The position numbers and the translations under genes are program-made. DNA of 63,964 nucleotides, filler included, from Acidimicrobiia bacterium (lineage in GTDB: Bacteria > Actinomycetota > Acidimicrobiia > Spongiisociales > CAZKJJ01), in the NCBI GenBank assembly GCA_046759765.1. It is 3 parts of 3 records of this genome, joined end to end, with 100 filler letters (N's around TTAATTAATTAA, not from the genome) between each part and the next. Parts side by side here need not be neighbours in the genome. Positions count along the whole stretch, not along the records: positions 1 to 27,039 come from JBHICV010000018.1; 2 more parts are not named here. The stretch is one strand, 5' to 3'. This document shows positions 6,661 to 54,023 of the stretch, one piece after another (positions within the stretch are counted from its first letter, which is position 1; the number at the start of each line of letters is the position of its first letter). Below the pieces are notes generated by a model, which saw nothing but the letters and a program-made list of their open reading frames with translations, did no database searches and was not told where the DNA came from.

Positions 6661-6663
6661 AGG

Positions 6664-6712
6664 TTTCTTGTCAATCGCAATGTCGCCTGGCGGCACTCAG
6701 ATTGACAGAAAC
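6664..6712. repeat. 49-bp palindromic REP-like element, subfamily B
   Basis: TTTCTTGTCAATC..GATTGACAGAAAC between convergent genes. Confidence 0.9.
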
Positions 6713-6721
6713 GCGTAGACC

Positions 6722-7465
6722 TCAGTTCTCTAGCTGACGACCGAGTTCCCGGGCGCCGGCGTTGGCGATCGCCAGGTGATGGTTGTGCCACCTCCGCAAC
6801 CGGCCCAGCCGCGTCGACGAGAGGCGGCCGCAGGCGTAGTCCCAGTGGAGAGCCACATCGTCCCCGGAAGAGAACTCGCTCCCCACGCCTCGCTCCACGA
6901 TCTCAGTCCGCGGGGCTCCCAGGGCAAGGTTTCGCCCATCCCAGTTCAGACGTTGCGAGCGGACCTCCATAGCTCCGTCAGAGACCGAGACGACTCGGCC
7001 CCAGCGAATTCGGCAGCGATCGAGCACGTGAAGGGCCTGGTCCGTGGCACCGGAGCGCAGAAGGCCGACCCACGGGTAAATACAGAAGACGTGGAAAGCA
7101 TGATTGGGGACGCCGCCCCGGGCAATCGCCTCCGACAGCTGCGGCCACTCCCATCCCGCTCGTCGGCGGAAGCGCTCGTCAACCGAGTTGCCCCAGGTCC
7201 CCTTGTCCATCCGGGACAGGAGGGGATGGCCGATCCAGTAGGCCTCGACAACGGTGGCGTCGAGAGGATCACGTTCGGCGATCGCTCCGATCAACTCCAG
7301 GTAAGGCCACGCGCCGGCGAACTCGCCCGCGACTCGTCGCAGGTCATCTGACGCCTCCCTGCCCGCTCGCACAAGCTCACCGAGCAACGTGCCATCCGAC
7401 GGTCCGCAGTACCCCAGCAGGTTGGGTGGGTAAGCAAAACGGGCAAATAGTTCCGGGCCTGTCAC
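6722..7465 (-). CDS. DUF6390-like hydrogenase-associated protein with HypC-like C-terminus
   Basis: FARFAYPPNLLGYCGP, VVEAYWIG, PNHAFHVF, DRCRIRWGRV, GDDVALHWD; GTG overlaps the stop of the upstream EamA gene (GTGA). Confidence 0.8.
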   Translation of the reverse strand: MTGPELFARFAYPPNLLGYCGPSDGTLLGELVRAGREASDDLRRVAGEFAGAWPYLELIGAIAERDPLDATVVEAYWIGHPLLSRMDKGTWGNSVDERFRRRAGWEWPQLSEAIARGGVPNHAFHVFCIYPWVGLLRSGATDQALHVLDRCRIRWGRVVSVSDGAMEVRSQRLNWDGRNLALGAPRTEIVERGVGSEFSSGDDVALHWDYACGRLSSTRLGRLRRWHNHHLAIANAGARELGRQLEN

Positions 7466-8373
7466 GCCGGTTGCGGCGCTCGCCGCCATTTCGACCGAAT
7501 CAGCACACTGATTCCAGCCACCAGCAGCCCAATACCCGCCAGGGAAGGCAGAGCTCCTCCGGCCGCAGTTCGCAGCAGGGCTGTGATTATGGCTCCACCC
7601 ACCAACACAGCGGTGACGTCGACTGCCGGCGCTCGCGCCAGTGCAGCGAACCAAGTACCGACGTAACCCGCCAGGAAAACGCCTGTGACGAGAACCCAAG
7701 CTACGTGCTCGATCGTTACGCCGGACAGCTCGGCAAACGCTCCCCGGGCGAGCCCGTAGGCGACCAAGAGGGCCACGCCGCCGGCCATCCGGGCGACGCC
7801 GACCGTGAACGATGACACGTCCGCGAGTAGTCGCTTGGCCAGCACGACCTCGGCGGCCCAGAGCAAAGTAGCGACCAGGATCATCAACTCACCGCGACCA
7901 AATGCGAGGTCACCGATGCCACCGACGAGCGCCACCTGTCCGATCAGCAGTAGCCCGATGGCGGCCATATGAGGTAAGCCAATCCGCTCGCGAAGCAGTG
8001 CCACGGCGAGGATGGCGACCCAAATGACCAGGGTCTTGTGGATGAAGGCGGCCTGCACTGAAGAGGCAAGGGCCAGGCCTTCGAAGAAAAGCACGAAGGC
8101 CACGCTTCCGCCGACAACCGCCACTGCACCCAGCCCGAGCCGAGTCACCCTTCCAGTCGGGGCGACGGGACGGAAGGTCGAGGGAGACCTGCTCGCTGCT
8201 CCCAACGCGCCGATCAGGATTACTGCTGCCACAAGGTTTTTCAGCGTCGTATACGTCGTCGGGTCCGAAAACTGTGACCAGGCGCGCACGCCGTAGCCGT
8301 TGACGAAGACCGCGAAACCGCTGATCAGCGCGGTACCCAGTGCAAGCAGGAGGCCTTTCCGGTGCACGCTCAT
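7462..8373 (-). CDS. EamA/DMT family transporter
   Basis: About 10 hydrophobic segments, LLRERIG motif. Confidence 0.85.
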   Translation of the reverse strand: MSVHRKGLLLALGTALISGFAVFVNGYGVRAWSQFSDPTTYTTLKNLVAAVILIGALGAASRSPSTFRPVAPTGRVTRLGLGAVAVVGGSVAFVLFFEGLALASSVQAAFIHKTLVIWVAILAVALLRERIGLPHMAAIGLLLIGQVALVGGIGDLAFGRGELMILVATLLWAAEVVLAKRLLADVSSFTVGVARMAGGVALLVAYGLARGAFAELSGVTIEHVAWVLVTGVFLAGYVGTWFAALARAPAVDVTAVLVGGAIITALLRTAAGGALPSLAGIGLLVAGISVLIRSKWRRAPQPA

Positions 8374-8430
8374 CGCCAGGCAGCGTACGCCGATCCCACC
8401 GACCCGTGACGAGTCCAACGTCGGAAAAGC

Positions 8431-8474
8431 ACGGTCGATCGTCCCTGACCTCACCGAGCCGGCGGAACTATCGT
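8431..8474 (+). promoter_or_regulatory. DosR/OsdR-like box + -10 of hydrogenase operon (leaderless)
   Basis: ACGGTCGATCGTCCCT (13/16 to AGGGCCGATCGGCCCT), 22 nt, TATCGT, 7 nt, GTG start. Confidence 0.7.
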
Positions 8475-8481
8475 CACGCGC

Positions 8482-9594
8482 GTGGAGGCGCGCGCCCTCG
8501 ACCGATCCGAGTTCGGCCAGCTCTTCTCCGCCCTATCGGGAGCCGGCTACAGCATCGTTGGGCCCAGGGTTGCGGAGGGAGCAATCGTCTACGACGAGTT
8601 GAGCTCTGTCGCCGATCTGCCGATCGGCTGGACGGATGAACAGGAGGCCGGCACATACCGGCTGGTCGAACGCGGCGACCAAGCGCTGTTCGGCTACGCG
8701 GTTGGACCCCACTCCTGGAAGAAGTACCTCTTCCCGCCGAAGGTGACCCTCTGGAGAGCCGAACGAGAGAACGGGTCGTTGAAGTTCGTCGAGGGAGATC
8801 CTCCTCGGCGGCGCCTTGCCTTCCTCGGTGTGAGAGCTTGCGAGCTTGCGGCGCTCGACATTCAGGACAAGGTTTTTCTCGGCTCGGGCGCCCAGGATCC
8901 CACTTACGGGACTCAGCGAGGTAACGCCTTCGTGATAGCTGTCAACTGCGCGGTGGCCGGCGGTACTTGCTTCTGCGTGTCGATGGAAACCGGGCCGGCG
9001 TGTGAGGATGGCTACGACCTTGTCGTCACCGAGATCATCGACGACGAGCGGCACGACTTCCTCATCGATGCTGGAACCGAGGCCGGAGAGCAGATTCTCG
9101 GAGAGCTCGGCGGGAGTCCCGCCACCGAGAGCGACGCAGCTCGCGTGGACCAGATCCTGGCCCACACGGCTTCATCGATGGGAAGGGCCATGGATACCGA
9201 GGGCATCTACAGCGTCCTCATGGACAATCTCGAGCACCCGCAGTGGGACGACGTCGCCGAACGCTGCCTGGCCTGCACGAACTGCACGCTCGTATGCCCG
9301 ACCTGTTTCTGCTCGACGACGGAAGACGTTGCGAATCTCGCGGGCGAAGCCGCGGAACGATCTCGACGCTGGGACTCGTGCTTCACGCTCGATTTCTCCG
9401 GCCTCCATCAAACCCCCGTGCGGCCCTCGATCCGCTCCCGCTACCGCCAATGGCTGACCCACAAACTGGCCACGTGGTATGACCAGTTCGGTTCGTCAGG
9501 GTGCGTCGGATGCGGCCGCTGCATCACCTGGTGTCCGGTCGGAATCGACCTGACTGCCGAAGTCGTGGCCTTGCGGGAGGAGGTGCCGGCATGA
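8482..9594 (+). CDS. hyhB: Group 3b [NiFe]-hydrogenase (sulfhydrogenase) beta subunit, 4Fe-4S
   Basis: [44 protein letters not shown]. Confidence 0.92.
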
Positions 9595-10046
9595 ATCTCG
9601 AGCCAATACGCGAGAAGAGCAACCTCCTGGCCCATCTACCCGGGCCTGAGATGCGCTTCTTCGAATCCGTAGCCACAGAAGCGACCTTCGAGGCGGACGC
9701 TGTCCTCTTCGACGAAGGGTCGGCCGCCGACATGTTCTACATAATCGGGGTCGGCAGGGTCGCCCTTGAGATCGCGAGCCCCGGCAAGGCTCCGATCGTC
9801 GTCCAGACGCTAAGCGACGGCGAGCTGGTCGGGATATCGTGGCTGCTCCCGCCCTACCGGTGGCAGTGGAGGGCGCGGGCTCTCATTGGTACGGACGCAG
9901 TTGCTTTCGACGCCGCCGCCGTTCGGAAGGAATGCGAACTCGACAAGGAGCTGAGCCTTCGAGTGCATCAGGCCGTCGCCGCCGAAGCCGCCCGGCGGCT
10001 CCATCACACGCGACTCCAGCTGCTCGATCTCTACGAGAAGGTGTAG
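9591..10046 (+). CDS. Stand-alone cyclic-nucleotide-binding-fold protein
   Basis: [22 protein letters not shown]; no HTH; ATGA overlap with hyhB. Confidence 0.85.
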
Positions 10047-10874
10047 ATGGCTTCGGCTGATCCCATGCTCCCGCGGACCTTTCGAGTCACGAACCGCCGT
10101 CAGGAGACACCTGAAGTCGTGACTCTGACTTTCGAGCCGGCCGACCACGGTTCGGCGCTAGGAGGCGACCCTGGTCAGTTCACAATGGTCTACGTGTTCG
10201 GGATCGGCGAGGTGCCGCTCTCTGTGGCAGGGGTCGAGAACGGCCGCCTGATTCATACTGTGCGGCCGGCGGGCGCCGTGACCAAGGCGATCTGTGCGCT
10301 GGAACCGGGAGAGCTGGCCGGGGTCCGGGGCCCGTACGGGGCCGGCTGGCCCCTCGCCGAAGCAACCGGGCACGATGTCGTAATCGCTGCCGGGGGGTTG
10401 GGTCTAGCTCCGCTCCGTCCGGTGATGACGGCTCTGCTCGAAAACCGGACCGACTTTGAGTACGTATCCCTCGTCTATGGGGTGCGATCTCCGTCGGATC
10501 TCCTGTACGCCGATGAGCTCCATCAGTGGCGCTCCCGCTTCGATGCTGAGATTGAGGTGACCGTTGACCGATCCGAGGCCGGTTGGCTCGGCGATGTCGG
10601 AGTCGTTACGACGCTGCTGGGACGAATCCCGTTCGACCCGGCGAACACAACGGCGATGGTTTGCGGTCCTGAGATCATGATGCGAGTCACTGCACGTGAG
10701 CTTGCTGATCGGGGCGTGCCTGGGTCATCGATTCATTTGAGTCTCGAACGCAACATGAAGTGCGCGATCGGCTTCTGCGGCCACTGTCAGTTCGGGCCCG
10801 ACTTCATTTGTCGGGATGGCCCTGTGCGCCCCTTCGACTTGGTGGCCAACCGGATGCGGATTGCTGAGCTATGA
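10047..10874 (+). CDS. hyhG: Group 3b hydrogenase gamma subunit (FAD/NAD(P)-binding, 2Fe-2S)
   Basis: [41 protein letters not shown]. Confidence 0.92.
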
Positions 10875-11635
10875 GCAACCCCAAGCTGGCCGTTTGGAAG
10901 TTCGCCTCCTGTGACGGGTGCCAGCTGACATTGCTCGATTGCGAGGATCAGCTCCTCGACATAGTCGGTGCGGTCGAGCTTGCCTACTTCCCCGAAGCCA
11001 CCCGGTCCGAGATCGAGGGACCGTATGACCTGTCGCTTGTGGAAGGCTCTATCACCACCGCCGACGATGCTCGCCGGATAGTTGAGATCAGAGAGATGTC
11101 GGAAGTGTTGGTCACGATCGGAGCGTGCGCCACGGCGGGCGGGATCCAGGCCCTTCGGAACTTCGCCAACGTTGATGACTACCTCCGGATCGTTTACGCC
11201 GAACCCTCCTACATCTCAACGCTCGAGACCTCGACCCCGATCACGGACCACGTAGCGGTGGATTTCGAGCTGCAAGGCTGCCCGATATCCAAGCCGCAGC
11301 TTCTTGAGGTCATTGATGCCTATCTCCGGGGCAGACGGCCTGCGATTGCGACACACAGCGTCTGCGTCGAATGCAAGATGCGGGGCACCCCTTGCGTGAT
11401 GGTGGCGCAGGGCATCCCGTGCCTGGGACCGGTGACGCAGGCCGGATGCGGTGCAATCTGTCCTGCCTACAACCGCGGGTGCTATGGATGCTTCGGCCCC
11501 GCCGCTCAGCCCAACATGGAGTCTCTCTCCAGCTGGTGGGGAGGTCTCGGAGTTACGCCCGCCGAGGAAGTTCGGGTGCTGCGCACGTTTAACGCCTACG
11601 CCCCCGAGTTCAAAGAGGCATCAGATGGCCGCTGA
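10871..11635 (+). CDS. hyhS: Group 3b hydrogenase small (delta) subunit
   Basis: [40 protein letters not shown]. Confidence 0.92.
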
Positions 11636-12923
11636 CCGGGAGATTGCGGTCGACTATCTGGCCAGGGTCGAGGGTGAAGGCGCCATGTACTTGAAGCTCG
11701 AAGGCGAGGAGGTGGTTGATCTTCGCTTCAAGATCTTCGAGCCTCCGCGATTCTTCGAGGCACTGCTCGCAGGACGCCACTTCTCCGAAGCCCCCGATCT
11801 GACGGCGCGCATCTGCGGCATCTGCCCAGTCGCTTATCAGGTCAGCGCCGTCAACGCGATGGAGGATGCGGCTGGTGTCGATGTCGGCCCAGCCCTCAGA
11901 GACCTCCGCCGTTTGATCTATTGCGGGGAGTGGATCGAGAGCCACGTCCTTCACATCTTTCTCCTCCACACGCCCGACTTTCTTGGCTACGAGGGGGTGG
12001 CGGAACTAGCCGCCGACTTTCCGGAGCAGGTAAAGATGGGCCTCCGTCTCAAGAAGGTCGGCAACCTTCTCATGAGCGTTATCGGGGGACGAGAGATCCA
12101 CCCGATCAATGTCCGTGTGGGTGGCTTCTACCGGCTGCCGACTCCAAAGGAACTACAGACCCTTGTCAGTGAGCTGGAGTGGGCCCGCGACGCAGCCGAG
12201 GCCACGGTCCGATGGGTTGCCGATTTTCCGTTCCCAGATTTTGAACGCGACTACACGTTCGTCGCGCTCCGGCACCCCGACGAGTATGCGATTGCCTCGG
12301 GACGGGTGGTCTCCAACCGGGGTCTCGACGTGTCCGTCCAGGAATGGCCCGAGCACTTCGAGGAGACCCATGTTGAGTGGTCCAATGCGCTCCATGCTCG
12401 GCTTCACGACGGCGGCTCGTATCACGTCGGAGCTATGGCCCGCTACAGCCTCAACTCGGAGCAGTTGAGTCCCCTCGCACTGCGTGTGGCGGCCGAGGCG
12501 GGCCTCGGAGAAACATGCCGGAATCCGTTTCAGAGCATCGTCGTCAGAGCGGTCGAGGCTCTCTACTCGGTCGAGGAGGCCCTCCGCCTCATTGACGGCT
12601 ACACGCGCCCGCCGGAGCCCTACGTCGAAGTGGAGCCGCGCTCGTCGGTCGGCCACGGGGCCAGCGAGGCGCCCCGAGGTCTTCTTTACCACCGATATGA
12701 CGTCGACTCCGATGGACTGATCGTAGAGGCACACATCGTTCCACCTACCTCCCAAAATCAGCTCTCGATAGAGGACGACCTGCGGGCCTATGTTGAAGGA
12801 AGAACGCACCTCGACGACACCCAGCTGCGGTGGCAGCTGGAGCAGGCCATTCGCAACTACGACCCCTGCATCTCATGTGCCACACACTTCCTCGACCTCA
12901 CTGTCGACCGGGAGGAGGCCTGA
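11625..12923 (+). CDS. hyhL: Group 3b [NiFe]-hydrogenase large (alpha) subunit
   Basis: RVEGEG, L1 [16 protein letters not shown]2 DPCISCATH plus a cleavable C-terminal tail. Confidence 0.95.
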
Positions 12924-13342
12924 TGGCTCGCCTCGTCGTAGGGCTCGGGACCGATGATCGGGGCGACGATGCTGCCGGCCTGGAGGTCGCTCGAAGAGTG
13001 CGAAAGGCTGAGGGCAGACCAACGCCGAACCCACTTGAACTCATCGATCTTCTTGAGGAGTGGGAAGAGGTGGTGGTTGTCGATACGATGCGGTCCGGTG
13101 AGGCTCCGGGCACTATCCGCAAGTTCAATCTTGACGACGAGTCATTGCCCGGCCACCCGTTCGTATCGAGTCACTTGGTAGGCCCGTTCGAGGCGCTGGC
13201 CCTGGCCCGCTCTCTGGGCCTCTCACAATCTGGCCTGGTGGTCTACGGAATTGAAGCCGAGAACGTCGAGGTTGGAGAGGGTTTATCGGCCCCGGTCCGT
13301 GAGGCGGTTGAGGCGCTGGTGAAGGAGATTGACAGTGCATGA
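12923..13342 (+). CDS. Hydrogenase maturation protease
   Basis: VVGLG..RGDDAAG, VVVD, SSH; TGATG coupling to the large subunit. Confidence 0.88.
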   Translation: MARLVVGLGTDDRGDDAAGLEVARRVRKAEGRPTPNPLELIDLLEEWEEVVVVDTMRSGEAPGTIRKFNLDDESLPGHPFVSSHLVGPFEALALARSLGLSQSGLVVYGIEAENVEVGEGLSAPVREAVEALVKEIDSA

Positions 13343-13559
13343 GCTCGGCGTGGTGCGGGACGTGCTGAAGAGGGCCAGTGAGAGTGCGACCATCGAAGGC
13401 GGTCAGCTCGTGTCCCTTCGTGTACGGATCGGCAACCTGTCGGGCGTCGATCCGGGCTTCTTCCGTGACCAGTTGTCTCTGCTGGCTCCTGATGTGGACC
13501 TGGCGATCGAGCCGGCAGACGATCAGCGCGTGAGTCTGGTGTCCGTGAAGGTGCGGTAG
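13335..13559 (+). CDS. hypA: Minimal HypA-like nickel chaperone (no Zn finger)
   Basis: GTG start after AAGGAG gives MHELG; VRIGNLSGVDP; 74 aa, no Cys. Confidence 0.75.
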   Translation: MHELGVVRDVLKRASESATIEGGQLVSLRVRIGNLSGVDPGFFRDQLSLLAPDVDLAIEPADDQRVSLVSVKVR

Positions 13560-13561
13560 CC

Positions 13562-13780
13562 ATGTGCGTAGCGCTCCCAGGCAGGGTGACATGGGTTGGA
13601 CCCCGAAGCGAGAGCACAATCCCGGCCCGGGTGGAGCTACCCACCGGAGTGGTCGAAGTCGATCTGGTGTTGGTTCCAGACGCTGAGATCGATGACTACG
13701 TCGTGGCGCATTCCGGGTTCGCGTTGCGCCTCATCTCGCAAGACGAGGCGGAGAGAACCCTTGAGCTAGCTGGATTCTGA
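13562..13780 (+). CDS. hypC: HypC/HupF hydrogenase chaperone
   Basis: MCVALPGRV..DYVVAHSGFA..EAERTL. Confidence 0.92.
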   Translation: MCVALPGRVTWVGPRSESTIPARVELPTGVVEVDLVLVPDAEIDDYVVAHSGFALRLISQDEAERTLELAGF

Positions 13781-13784
13781 CGGC

Positions 13785-13828
13785 ACTGACTTTCGGCCCT
13801 GGCCGGCCTCTCCATCGACGAGTATCAA
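13785..13828 (+). promoter_or_regulatory. DosR/OsdR-like box + -10 upstream of candidate ncRNA
   Basis: ACTGACTTTCGGCCCT (11/16), 22 nt, TATCAA. Confidence 0.5.
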
Positions 13829-13833
13829 GTAGG

Positions 13834-13927
13834 CGAGGCGCATAGCAACCGGCCGCGTCCTGTTGCGCAGCAGGTGACCCTCCAATGCTGAGCCATCGCG
13901 ACGGGCCTGCGGCCGGGCGCCGTCTCG
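13834..13927 (+). ncRNA. Candidate rod-shaped small RNA (unassigned family)
   Basis: Nested helices GGCGC/GCGCC, CCGGCCGC/GCGGCCGG, GTCC-GTTGCG/CGCGAC-GGGC, CAGCA/TGCTG; G-U pairs only on + strand; no credible ORF. Confidence 0.55.
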
Positions 13928-13933
13928 GGAGAG

Positions 13934-13982
13934 ATTCGTGTCAATGCCCGCGTCGGAAAGCGACGTGTCGATTGACAGGAAC
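13934..13982. repeat. 49-bp REP-like element, subfamily B
   Basis: ATTCGTGTCAAT..ATTGACAGGAAC; close inverted match to the copy at 43081. Confidence 0.9.
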
Positions 13983-13988
13983 GGTGCC

Positions 13989-14918
13989 CTACGCAGCCAG
14001 GTCGTCGTCGCCGATCTCGGCGGCGATGGTGGTAAGAGCTTCTTGCGCGAGCTGCCTTACACGCTCGGGCGTTAGCCCGACGCGCTCTCCGACCTCGGCC
14101 AGAGTCCAAGGACGCCCGTCCTCGAGGCCGAATCGGAGCTTGACGATCTCGGCTTCCTTATCGGACAGACGCGCGATCGCGTCATGGAGCGCACGCCCCT
14201 GTAGCGCTCGGTCCGTGGCCTCGAACGGGTCCTCAGCACCCTCATCGTGGATGAAGTCGGCCAGCTCCGCGCCGTCCTCACCGACGGGCTCGTCGATCGA
14301 GACGATGCTGCCGACGCCCAGCGCCTGCGACACGGCCTTGGTCTCGAGCCCGGTCTCGGCGGCGATCTCTTCTGCCGTGGGCTCTCGGCCGAGCTGGGAG
14401 GCGAGATTTGCTCGGGTAGCGCGGACCACTCCCAGAATGTCGTGGAGGTGGACGGGCAGCCGAATGGTGCGTGAATGCTGCGCCACCGCCCGCTGCAGTG
14501 CCTGGCGAATCCACCACGTTGCATACGTGGAGAACTTGAAACCCTTGCGCCAGTCGAACTTCTCGACTGCGCGGATCAGCCCGAGGTTCCCTTCCTGGAC
14601 GAGGTCGAGGAGATCCATGTCCGAGTGGCCGACATACCGGCGCGCATTCGCGACGACGAGGCGAAGATTGGCAGCCACGAAGGCCTGCTTGGCCACCTCA
14701 CCTTCGGAGGCCGCCTGCTCCAACTCTCTCTTCTCTGCCTTGGACTTGAAGTCCGAGGCGTCCAACCGCTTCTGTGCCGCCAGTCCGTCTTCCATGTGGC
14801 GCGCCAAAGCGATCTCCTGCTCGGCGGTCAGGAGCTCGTATCGACCGATCGCGTCGAGATACTGGCCGACGGAGTCGGTCAGTACGCGCACGTCGGACTC
14901 CGGGCGTCTTCCAGTCAT
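13989..14918 (-). CDS. Group 2 sigma-70 factor (SigB/HrdD-like)
   Basis: [56 protein letters not shown]; no region 1.1; GGAGG RBS. Confidence 0.93.
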
Positions 14919-14936
14919 GCCGCTACCTCCAGTATG

Positions 14937-14952
14937 TCGAACAAACGTTCGG
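14937..14952. promoter_or_regulatory. LexA (SOS/Cheo) box
   Basis: TCGAAC-AAAC-GTTCGG, fits CGAAC-RNRY-GTTCG. Confidence 0.6.
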
Positions 14953-14965
14953 TGGCAAGTATTCC
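14940..14965 (-). promoter_or_regulatory. SigH/SigE/SigR-type promoter of the sigma gene
   Basis: GGAAT-N18-GTT on the minus strand. Confidence 0.7.
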
Positions 14966-14972
14966 CAGAAGT

Positions 14973-15016
14973 TGGGACGTTCTGCCCTGGCTCCACACAG
15001 GGAGCAAGCATACGTT
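14973..15016 (+). promoter_or_regulatory. DosR/OsdR-like box + -10 of hsp20
   Basis: TGGGACGTTCTGCCCT (12/16), 22 nt, TACGTT. Confidence 0.65.
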
Positions 15017-15035
15017 GGGCGCGAAAGGGGGTGTT

Positions 15036-15482
15036 ATGGCGATTGCACGCTGGACACCTTTCGGCACCCTCGCCGCGTGGGAACACGACATGGAATCCAT
15101 GCTGGACCGCTTCCTCGGTAGGGATTGGTTCAACGGCGAGCGGCTCGGGTGGAGGCCACGGGTAGACATGTTCCGCCAGAAGGGCGACCTCATCATCCGT
15201 GTGGAGCTACCGGGAATCGATCCCAACGAGCTCGACATCCAGATGGAAGGCGAGGTTCTCCACATTGCAGGTGAGCGCACCTTCGACGAAGAGGTCACTG
15301 AAGAGGACCGCTATATGAGGGAGCGCTTCTATGGCCGCTTCGAGCGCCGCCTGATGCTTCCCGAAGGCACTGACGCCGATCAGCTGGAGGCCACTTATAC
15401 AGACGGCGTCCTCACCATGAAGGTTCCGCTTCCGGCGGAGGTGCTTCCCAAGGCTCGCAAGATCGCGGTCCACACGGACTGA
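15036..15482 (+). CDS. Hsp20/alpha-crystallin small heat-shock protein
   Basis: [34 protein letters not shown]. Confidence 0.95.
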
Positions 15483-15499
15483 TCTGCGAGATGCACGGG

Positions 15500-15533
15500 C
15501 GAAGGGGGCGGGGGGTCGACCCCGCTCCCTTCG
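15500..15533 (+). terminator. Hairpin terminator after hsp20
   Basis: CGAAGGG-GGCGGGG..CCCCGCT-CCCTTCG. Confidence 0.65.
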
Positions 15534-15686
15534 AGCTCGAGACGCGGCTGGCTCTGATTAGGTTGCCTCGTGTCCGGAGAGACCCGGCAAAAGATGCCGA
15601 TGCAGTTCCTTTTCTCCTTGCCCACTGGACGCAGCCATAGGAGCATGTCCGGCGGGGGAGGAGGGGATCTGATCGGGGAGGCAGCC

Positions 15687-27039: not shown

Positions 27040-27139
27040 NNNNNNNNNNNNNNNNNNNNNNNNNNNNNNNNNNNNNNNNNNNNTTAATTAATTAANNNNN
27101 NNNNNNNNNNNNNNNNNNNNNNNNNNNNNNNNNNNNNNN
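27040..27139. other. Artificial contig linker
   Basis: N44-TTAATTAATTAA-N44 (stops in all frames). Confidence 0.98.
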
Positions 27140-53923: not shown

Positions 53924-54023
53924 NNNNNNNNNNNNNNNNNNNNNNNNNNNNNNNNNNNNNNNNNNNNTTAATTAATTAANNNNNNNNNNNNNNNNNNNNN
54001 NNNNNNNNNNNNNNNNNNNNNNN
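53924..54023. other. Artificial contig linker
   Basis: N44-TTAATTAATTAA-N44. Confidence 0.98.

Follow-up and report, generated by a model that had tools for sequence, protein, structure and literature searches.

Genomic context of the locus

The window analyzed here, a stretch of 63,964 nucleotides, belongs to the genome of an Acidimicrobiia bacterium (G000). Runs of N at 27040-27139 and 53924-54023 show that it consists of at least three joined contigs, positions 1-27039 corresponding to contig C18. The locus under study is a 208-nt gap (13781-13988) with hypC upstream on the plus strand and a convergent sigma-70 gene on the other side (Table 1). The likely start of the sigma gene is the ATG at 14918, behind a GGAGG Shine-Dalgarno sequence, which gives a protein of 309 aa; the gene has at least eight paralogs in the genome. 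A preliminary description had placed a small RNA with its own promoter in this gap and had assigned it to the end of the hydrogenase operon. A point absent from that description is that the candidate RNA is convergent with the sigma-factor gene and fully antisense to its 3' flank.

Table 1. Coordinates of the features at the hairpin locus and of the two sister promoters in the window
Feature	Position	Strand	Details
Sister promoter, hydrogenase operon	8434..8475	+	box + 21 nt + TATCGT
hypC	13562-13780	+	Pfam HupF_HypC
Activator-type box	13787..13807	+	core GACTTTCGGCCCTG at 13788-13801; occupies the -35 place
Spacer, box to -10 hexamer	13808..13822	+	sequence free, length fixed
-10-like hexamer TATCAA	13823..13828	+	TATCAG in G001, TATCA kept
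Candidate RNA, 94-nt rod-like hairpin	13834..13927	+	fold, consensus with G001, single copy
Apical loop, part kept in G001	13874..13883	+	GUGACCCUCC, C-rich, contains CCUCC, 10/10 identical in G001
REP-like palindrome	13935..13983		more than 30 matches in G000; between the hairpin and the sigma stop codon
Sigma-70 gene, group-1/2-type, convergent	13989..14918	-	Pfam regions 1.2, 2, 3, 4; stop at 13989
Sister promoter, hsp20	14976..15016	+	box + 21 nt + TACGTT; hsp20 at 15036-15482

The gap holds no credible ORF, as had been stated before. Only shadow ORFs were found in 13781-13988, one on the minus strand (13825-14109) and one on the plus strand (13885-15165). The plus-strand ORF runs antisense to the sigma gene with coinciding third codon positions and is thus a shadow of it, and the minus-strand ORF has no match in Pfam. 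A third coding reading, a small minus-strand ORF behind the GGAGGG loop, was also rejected: by our own reading, its frame differs between G000 and G001, a relative from another genus that is the sole other genome of the family (84% complete).

The REP hairpin reported on the 3' side of the element is present as well. It has multi-copy depth in the DNA contigs and is without a counterpart at the same place in G001; this palindrome is not part of the conserved element. The REP-like family consists of 49-nt palindromes of the GTGTCAATGCC...GATTGACA type, whose copies often match in both orientations and at which contig assemblies of the DNA runs break.

Upstream of the gap lies a 7.1-kb block (6661-13786) that comprises a DUF6390 gene, an EamA transporter and the NiFe-hydrogenase operon with hycI, a hypA-like gene and hypC. 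From its Pfam subunit set, the hydrogenase is tentatively assigned to group 3b. The block is an island-like indel that reaches the box with its right end (13786/13787), and no integrase or transposase occurs among its Pfam hits.

Structure and copy number of the hairpin

On the plus strand, the 94-nt element folds into one nested hairpin, as the preliminary description had proposed (-51.3 kcal/mol, z -2.93, 3 of 200 shuffles as good); the corresponding values for the minus strand are -45.6 kcal/mol and z -1.27. The minimum free energy fold contains most of the helices described earlier, namely the 8-bp helix CCGGCCGC/GCGGCCGG, the inner helix and CAGCA/UGCUG, together with the loop GGUGACCCUCCAA. 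The basal helix is the exception: in the minimum free energy fold it is CGAGGCG/CGUCUCG, and the GGCGC/GCGCC pairing given before is an alternative register that is used in the consensus fold with G001. The hairpin of G000 has four G-U pairs that work on the plus strand only and become A-C mismatches on the minus strand.

The stability of the fold is modest when placed against the rest of the window. Among the 10,580 plus-strand windows of a sliding scan (94 nt each), the 12 best had GC-corrected z values of -3.8 to -4.4, and the hairpin framed exactly has a z of about -3 (our own arithmetic from the regression of the scan). Since the 12 best windows surpass it, the fold energy alone is not exceptional. 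The strongest local plus-strand fold, at 15439-15545 (GC-corrected z about -4.3), directly follows the stop codon of hsp20 and is probably a terminator or stabilizer stem of hsp20.

Both BLAST and the covariance model found the hairpin in single copy in G000, so it is not a mobile repeat. The scan of 13000-14800 against Rfam 15 (cmscan, E up to 10) returned four weak matches, none of them on the hairpin or the promoter; the families covered include 6C, RsaE, 6S and DrrS-type entries. RF00305 is among the four, at 17.2 bits for a gathering score of 120; it begins in the REP palindrome at 13957 and extends into the sigma coding sequence. The G001 locus gave one weak miRNA match only, outside the element. 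No intrinsic terminator (a GC-rich stem followed by a U-tract) was found on either strand in 13500-14300. Taken as a non-coding, structured, single-copy element with a promoter-like signal of its own, the element agrees with its first description.

The contigs assembled from four DNA runs carry no variant in 13500-13964, and a third version of the sequence is absent from them. Within the sigma gene (14183-14241), short contigs of DNA runs X1 and X2 show 11 differences in about 150 nt; these reflect either a co-occurring strain or the misplacement of sequence from a sigma paralog.

Promoter-like box and its sister sites

The box ahead of the hairpin has a poor left half-site. The combination of GWCKWTCKKCCCTG, exactly 21 nt and a TA-hexamer is found at three sites on the contig (8434, 13788 and 14976), all within 7 kb, which bears out the claim that the hairpin shares its promoter geometry with the hydrogenase operon and hsp20. 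No further box-hexamer sites stand out from the shuffle level in G000 with a relaxed pattern (18 real matches vs. 25-28 in shuffles). The hsp20 box is found in G001 with 11/14 identical positions and the same spacing; of five extra box matches in G001, none is clearly a promoter.

The first gene of the hydrogenase operon (8470-8484) has a GTG codon 7 nt after TATCGT and no Shine-Dalgarno sequence; therefore, the hydrogenase mRNA is probably leaderless. In three leaderless-looking cases (hydrogenase, L053 and L054), 6-7 nt separate the hexamer from the start codon. Because transcription starts in such cases would fall 7-8 nt after the hexamer, transcription ahead of the hairpin is predicted to begin at about G13835. 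This position, predicted and not mapped, is the second base of the stem and lies next to the start near 13834 suggested earlier, where the stem begins.

The intergenic region between the sigma start (14918, minus strand) and hsp20 contains a perfect palindrome of Cheo/LexA type, CGAACAAACGTTCG, at 14938-14951; the palindrome and the adjacent GTGGCARGTATTCCCAG are kept in G001. The sigma gene's own promoter carries a LexA-type box. In the whole G000 genome, CGAAC-N4-GTTCG occurs 23 times vs. about 3 expected, many copies directly after TATGAT, which suggests an SOS regulon that includes the convergent sigma factor.

The same layout is observed in other genomes. In a metagenome scan for the box followed by 19-21 nt and TATCA, all four matches (three distinct loci) lie 15-85 nt upstream of an ORF on the same strand. 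The hairpin covariance model had no match at these metagenome loci, which are promoters without the hairpin. When 149 further genomes from the order were scanned, 11 box matches were obtained vs. 3 for the reversed control; the unpublished genomes G004 and G015 enter these tallies, solely among those without a match. Ten of the 11 matches are upstream of a same-strand ORF of at least 70 aa, and the eleventh (L052) is without such an ORF by the simple criterion used. The products encoded behind the boxes include TIR-domain, SRPBCC, Rrf2, DUF302, DUF4389, NosZ-like, CHAD and EamA proteins. Examples from other families of the order are provided by a NosZ-like gene with box, 21 nt and TA (L056, G040:C4), by an Rrf2 regulator whose -10 is overlain by a second palindrome (L053, G059:C210) and by a conserved TIR-domain protein headed by the box (L049/L050). 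Judging from these sequences, the box + 21 nt + TA layout appears to be a genuine promoter type elsewhere, and it may represent an order-wide regulon responding to low oxygen or NO.

Conservation of the element in a related genome

DNA search among 40 relatives identified the element in G001 only, and the covariance model, applied to 151 genomes of the order, detected only G000 and G001. The search for homologs thus provided one homolog and no third. Six other matches of the covariance model, with E of 0.3-1 per genome, are noise. An exact search for the loop pattern over all species genomes gave two loci: L046 is a chance match without a hairpin, and L047, which coincides in position with the G001 locus, contributes nothing new.

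In G001, genes for NAD synthase and a class IV aminotransferase are followed by 346 nt, the box-hairpin element and the convergent sigma gene; there the hairpin adjoins the sigma stop codon at 1 nt and the REP palindrome is absent. Compared with this arrangement, G000 has 7.1 kb extra (6661-13786) between the aminotransferase gene and the box. The first protein of the hydrogenase operon was not found in G001 (84% complete). Since the element and the sigma gene stand together in G001 at a place that lacks the hydrogenase, the element does not belong to the hydrogenase operon, and this part of the preliminary description has to be abandoned. In these two genomes, the element appears to travel with the convergent sigma gene as its synteny partner.

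The block is conserved more strongly than its neighbors. Nucleotide identity between G000 and G001 is 79% for NAD synthase, 69% for the aminotransferase and 73% for the sigma gene vs. 81% for the box and hairpin (13787-13924). The sigma proteins share 80% of amino acids, and only 27/93 fourfold-degenerate sites of the gene are identical, so neutral sites are saturated. The box is identical at 21/21 positions. The spacer, with 5/15 identical positions and no indel, matches the neutral level of the fourfold-degenerate sites. A kept box, a free spacer of fixed length and a kept TATCA form the footprint expected of a promoter, and we predict one here.

Conservation of the hairpin follows its fold. 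The consensus fold of the two sequences has 30 pairs, none of them broken; one pair change is compensatory (G-C to A-U), and two are GU/GC switches. The columns that differ comprise 4 of the 60 paired positions, all pair-preserving, and 12 of the 33 unpaired ones (Fisher p 0.0009). Changes at unpaired positions are concentrated at the junctions between helices, and three unpaired motifs are kept: UAGCAA (7/8), the apical GUGACCCUCC and AGCCA (5/6). For the covariation score, calculated from n=2 sequences, 267 of 500 shuffles reach the observed value, and this control is uninformative. Taken together, the pattern of substitutions indicates that the block is under strong purifying selection.

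The evidence on the strand is mixed. The orientation of the box and hexamer, which is that of the hydrogenase and hsp20 promoters, favors the plus strand, and so do the four G-U pairs of G000. The asymmetry of the fold is not kept in G001, where the hairpin has -48.5 kcal/mol on the plus strand (z -2.2) and about -51.0 kcal/mol on the minus strand (z -1.9). Hence the earlier statement that G-U wobbles work only on the plus strand holds for G000 and fails for G001. The position of the G001 hairpin directly after the stop codon also suits the 3' end of a sigma mRNA.

Relation to DosR and to known small RNAs

The preliminary description had called the promoter DosR-type. The consensus of DosR (DevR) is given in PMC2275270 as the 20-bp TTSGGGACTWWAGTCCCSAA; the same source describes sites of 14-20 bp with GGGAC/..CCC halves that overlap the -35 element. 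Scored against this M. tuberculosis consensus, the hydrogenase, hairpin and hsp20 boxes match at 11/20, 10/20 and 11/20 positions, respectively, which is background: 45% of 3000 random 66-nt windows of the genome reach at least 11/20. Because all three boxes match at background level, the label denotes an analogy and no demonstrated membership, and the claim cannot be upheld as it stood. Higher scores are observed for the G001 copy of the hairpin box (13/20, reached by 3.6% of windows) and for the best metagenome sites, which read TTCGGGACTTTCGGCCC (15/20). The right half of the boxes described here differs from that of a DosR site, being GGCCC, TGCCC or GTCCC followed by an invariant TG. The geometry of DosR promoters is reproduced: 34 bp separate the end of the core (13801) from the predicted start G13835, and the box overlaps the -35 place. 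By analogy, the label is reasonable with respect to this geometry and to the company of genes, a hydrogenase and hsp20. The DosR-activated hypoxia proteins of M. smegmatis include HspX and the group 3b hydrogenase Hyh (bioRxiv 10.1101/2023.09.11.557286).

The closest known system is DrrS (MTS1338) of M. tuberculosis, described in PMC5360333 as a DosR-regulated small RNA of 108-109 nt. According to that report, the DosR site lies 34 bp upstream of the start and overlaps the -35 element, a stem begins at nucleotide 1, there is no U-tract, and the 3' end probably arises by processing. The candidate resembles DrrS, as described there, in its size of about 94 nt, the box overlapping the -35 place, the stem at the 5' end and the lack of a U-tract. 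A further likeness is a regulon in which, elsewhere, an hsp20-type chaperone is found, joined in M. smegmatis by a group 3b hydrogenase. The two differ in sequence, with no likeness at this level or in Rfam, as had been noted before. They also differ in architecture: DrrS is depicted with a 5-bp 5' stem and a separate long stem, whereas the candidate is one rod. Unlike DrrS, the candidate is convergent with a sigma gene, and its box is only DosR-like.

Other small RNAs provide parallels for the loop. The 6C/B11 RNA is a small RNA of high-GC Gram-positive bacteria. By the title of PMC6486639, it binds mRNA targets via C-rich loops, independently of chaperones. Like 6C/B11, as far as that title goes, the candidate is a small, highly structured actinobacterial RNA with a C-rich loop, which here is the best-conserved unpaired segment. 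It differs from 6C/B11 in having one loop instead of two, in the lack of an Rfam match up to E of 10 and in its occurrence in two genomes, whereas 6C is present in the whole phylum. The C-rich motifs of RoxS pair with Shine-Dalgarno regions; this RNA is controlled by the ResDE two-component system and has a canonical terminator. RoxS/RsaE of Firmicutes is, by the title of PMC4409812, a nitric-oxide-regulated small RNA of redox homeostasis. The candidate is unrelated to it in lineage and sequence and has no Rfam match. By analogy, the candidate would work most like DrrS and the C-rich-loop RNAs 6C/B11 and RoxS/RsaE, being a member of none of these families.

Possible function and alternative explanations

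The locus probably represents a new gene for a stress-induced small RNA, arranged tail-to-tail with the sigma gene. We infer that it is transcribed, on the plus strand, as an independent gene. A regulator-binding box overlapping the -35 place, in a class-II-like arrangement, would together with TATCAA start transcription at about G13835. As this start is the second base of a three-helix hairpin, the RNA would be born with a 5'-terminal stem. The same box heads the hydrogenase operon and hsp20 and, elsewhere, nosZ and Rrf2 genes, so the RNA probably belongs to a small stress regulon, whose most likely inducing signal would be low oxygen or NO. The hairpin itself probably constitutes the mature RNA: no U-tract terminator is present on either strand, so processing back to the stable stem would generate the 3' end, as has been described for DrrS.

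The kept unpaired motifs point to a contact in trans, because pairing with an own antisense would not constrain them. This contact would most likely be made with a protein or with mRNA regions that are G-rich or carry Shine-Dalgarno sequences. The 10-mer complement of the loop has 11 matches in the genome, about the chance number (by our own rough estimate, ~11), with no clear enrichment at start codons. Pairings with the ribosome-binding sites of the sigma and hsp20 genes, identified by eye, extend over 6-8 bp, no more than for any strong Shine-Dalgarno sequence. In full, the block 13787-13927 would be an independent, box-activated small RNA gene on the plus strand whose product has its own 5' stem, is trimmed to the hairpin and targets either a protein or G-rich or Shine-Dalgarno sequences by means of its kept unpaired motifs, chiefly the C-rich loop. 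We give this complete scenario about an even chance of being right. Since the gene fires toward the 3' end of the sigma gene, read-through or hairpin-hairpin pairing could also act on the sigma mRNA.

Another scenario, which we consider unlikely, sees in the element no more than a device that acts on the sigma gene in cis, by antisense pairing or by transcription interference. The sole part of the hairpin would be to stabilize a longer antisense RNA at its 5' end, or else it would pair with its mirror hairpin so that a double-strand RNase removes the protective 3' stem of the mRNA; sigma output would fall when the regulon is on. Both genomes have the element in convergent position beside the same sigma gene, with a different flank on the other side, and in G001 the hairpin is 1 nt from the sigma stop codon; read-through would be expected, as there is no terminator-like site on either strand. 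However, linkage is only weakly supported by one kept flank in two genomes, and in G000 the 49-nt REP palindrome and its flanks are tolerated between the hairpin and the sigma gene. An antisense RNA pairs perfectly whatever its sequence, which leaves the kept GUGACCCUCC, UAGCAA and AGCCA next to varying junctions unexplained. Because loops are not constrained by mere antisense pairing, a role in trans is ranked above a purely cis one.

The hairpin could also function on the minus strand, as a 3'-UTR stem of the sigma mRNA (a terminator, an exonuclease block or a 3'-UTR-derived small RNA with a GGAGGG loop), with the box being unrelated or vestigial. Conservation of the stem fits this reading too, as do the placement of the hairpin right behind the sigma stop codon in G001 and the minus-strand fold of that genome, which is as good as the plus-strand one. 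A terminator is at odds with the lack of a U-tract after the stem on the minus strand, given that the mycobacterial RNA polymerase is reported to need one (as cited in PMC5360333). Further, the promoter-like footprint and its identity with two gene promoters would be left unexplained, the four G-U pairs of G000 become A-C on this strand with the weaker fold given above, and the small ORF behind the GGAGGG loop is, by our own reading, not kept in frame. We regard this explanation as decidedly unlikely.

A more elaborate scenario combines both partners in a two-way switch. The RNA induced by low oxygen or NO would mirror the 3' hairpin of the sigma mRNA, a kissing interaction would strip the stem, and the C-rich loop would silence Shine-Dalgarno sequences in trans, coupling oxygen status to an SOS-controlled sigma factor. 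We mention this speculative model as an improbable one. The least probable explanation is that the block has no RNA function, being a DNA-level element (a boundary or insertion hotspot by the hydrogenase island) or a chance GC-rich palindrome: the hydrogenase-operon indel does end exactly at the box (13786/13787) and comparable fold energies occur elsewhere in the window, but identity is 81-89% where neutral sites are saturated, stems and loops are under different constraint, and the element is single-copy and no mobile repeat, with no integrase or transposase among the Pfam hits of the block.

Implications

Acidimicrobiia are a widespread, uncultured class of Actinobacteria. Our search of the literature for regulatory RNAs or low-oxygen regulons of this class returned almost nothing; no publication dealt with DosR, and the matches for small RNAs were unrelated by title or abstract. 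The candidate small RNA appears credible and unusually well conserved, on the basis of two genomes. The scope of the finding is narrow, as it concerns these two genomes and as a stress-regulon small RNA with a C-rich loop is of a well-known kind. Still, the locus provides a clean example of a non-coding block that is conserved more strongly than the neighboring genes.

If transcribed, the element would be the first candidate small RNA family for Acidimicrobiia. The shared box would then define a small regulon that comprises a fermentative-type hydrogenase, hsp20 and the RNA, and in relatives nosZ, Rrf2 and other genes. Such a regulon would offer a handle on the sensing of oxygen or NO by these vent bacteria.
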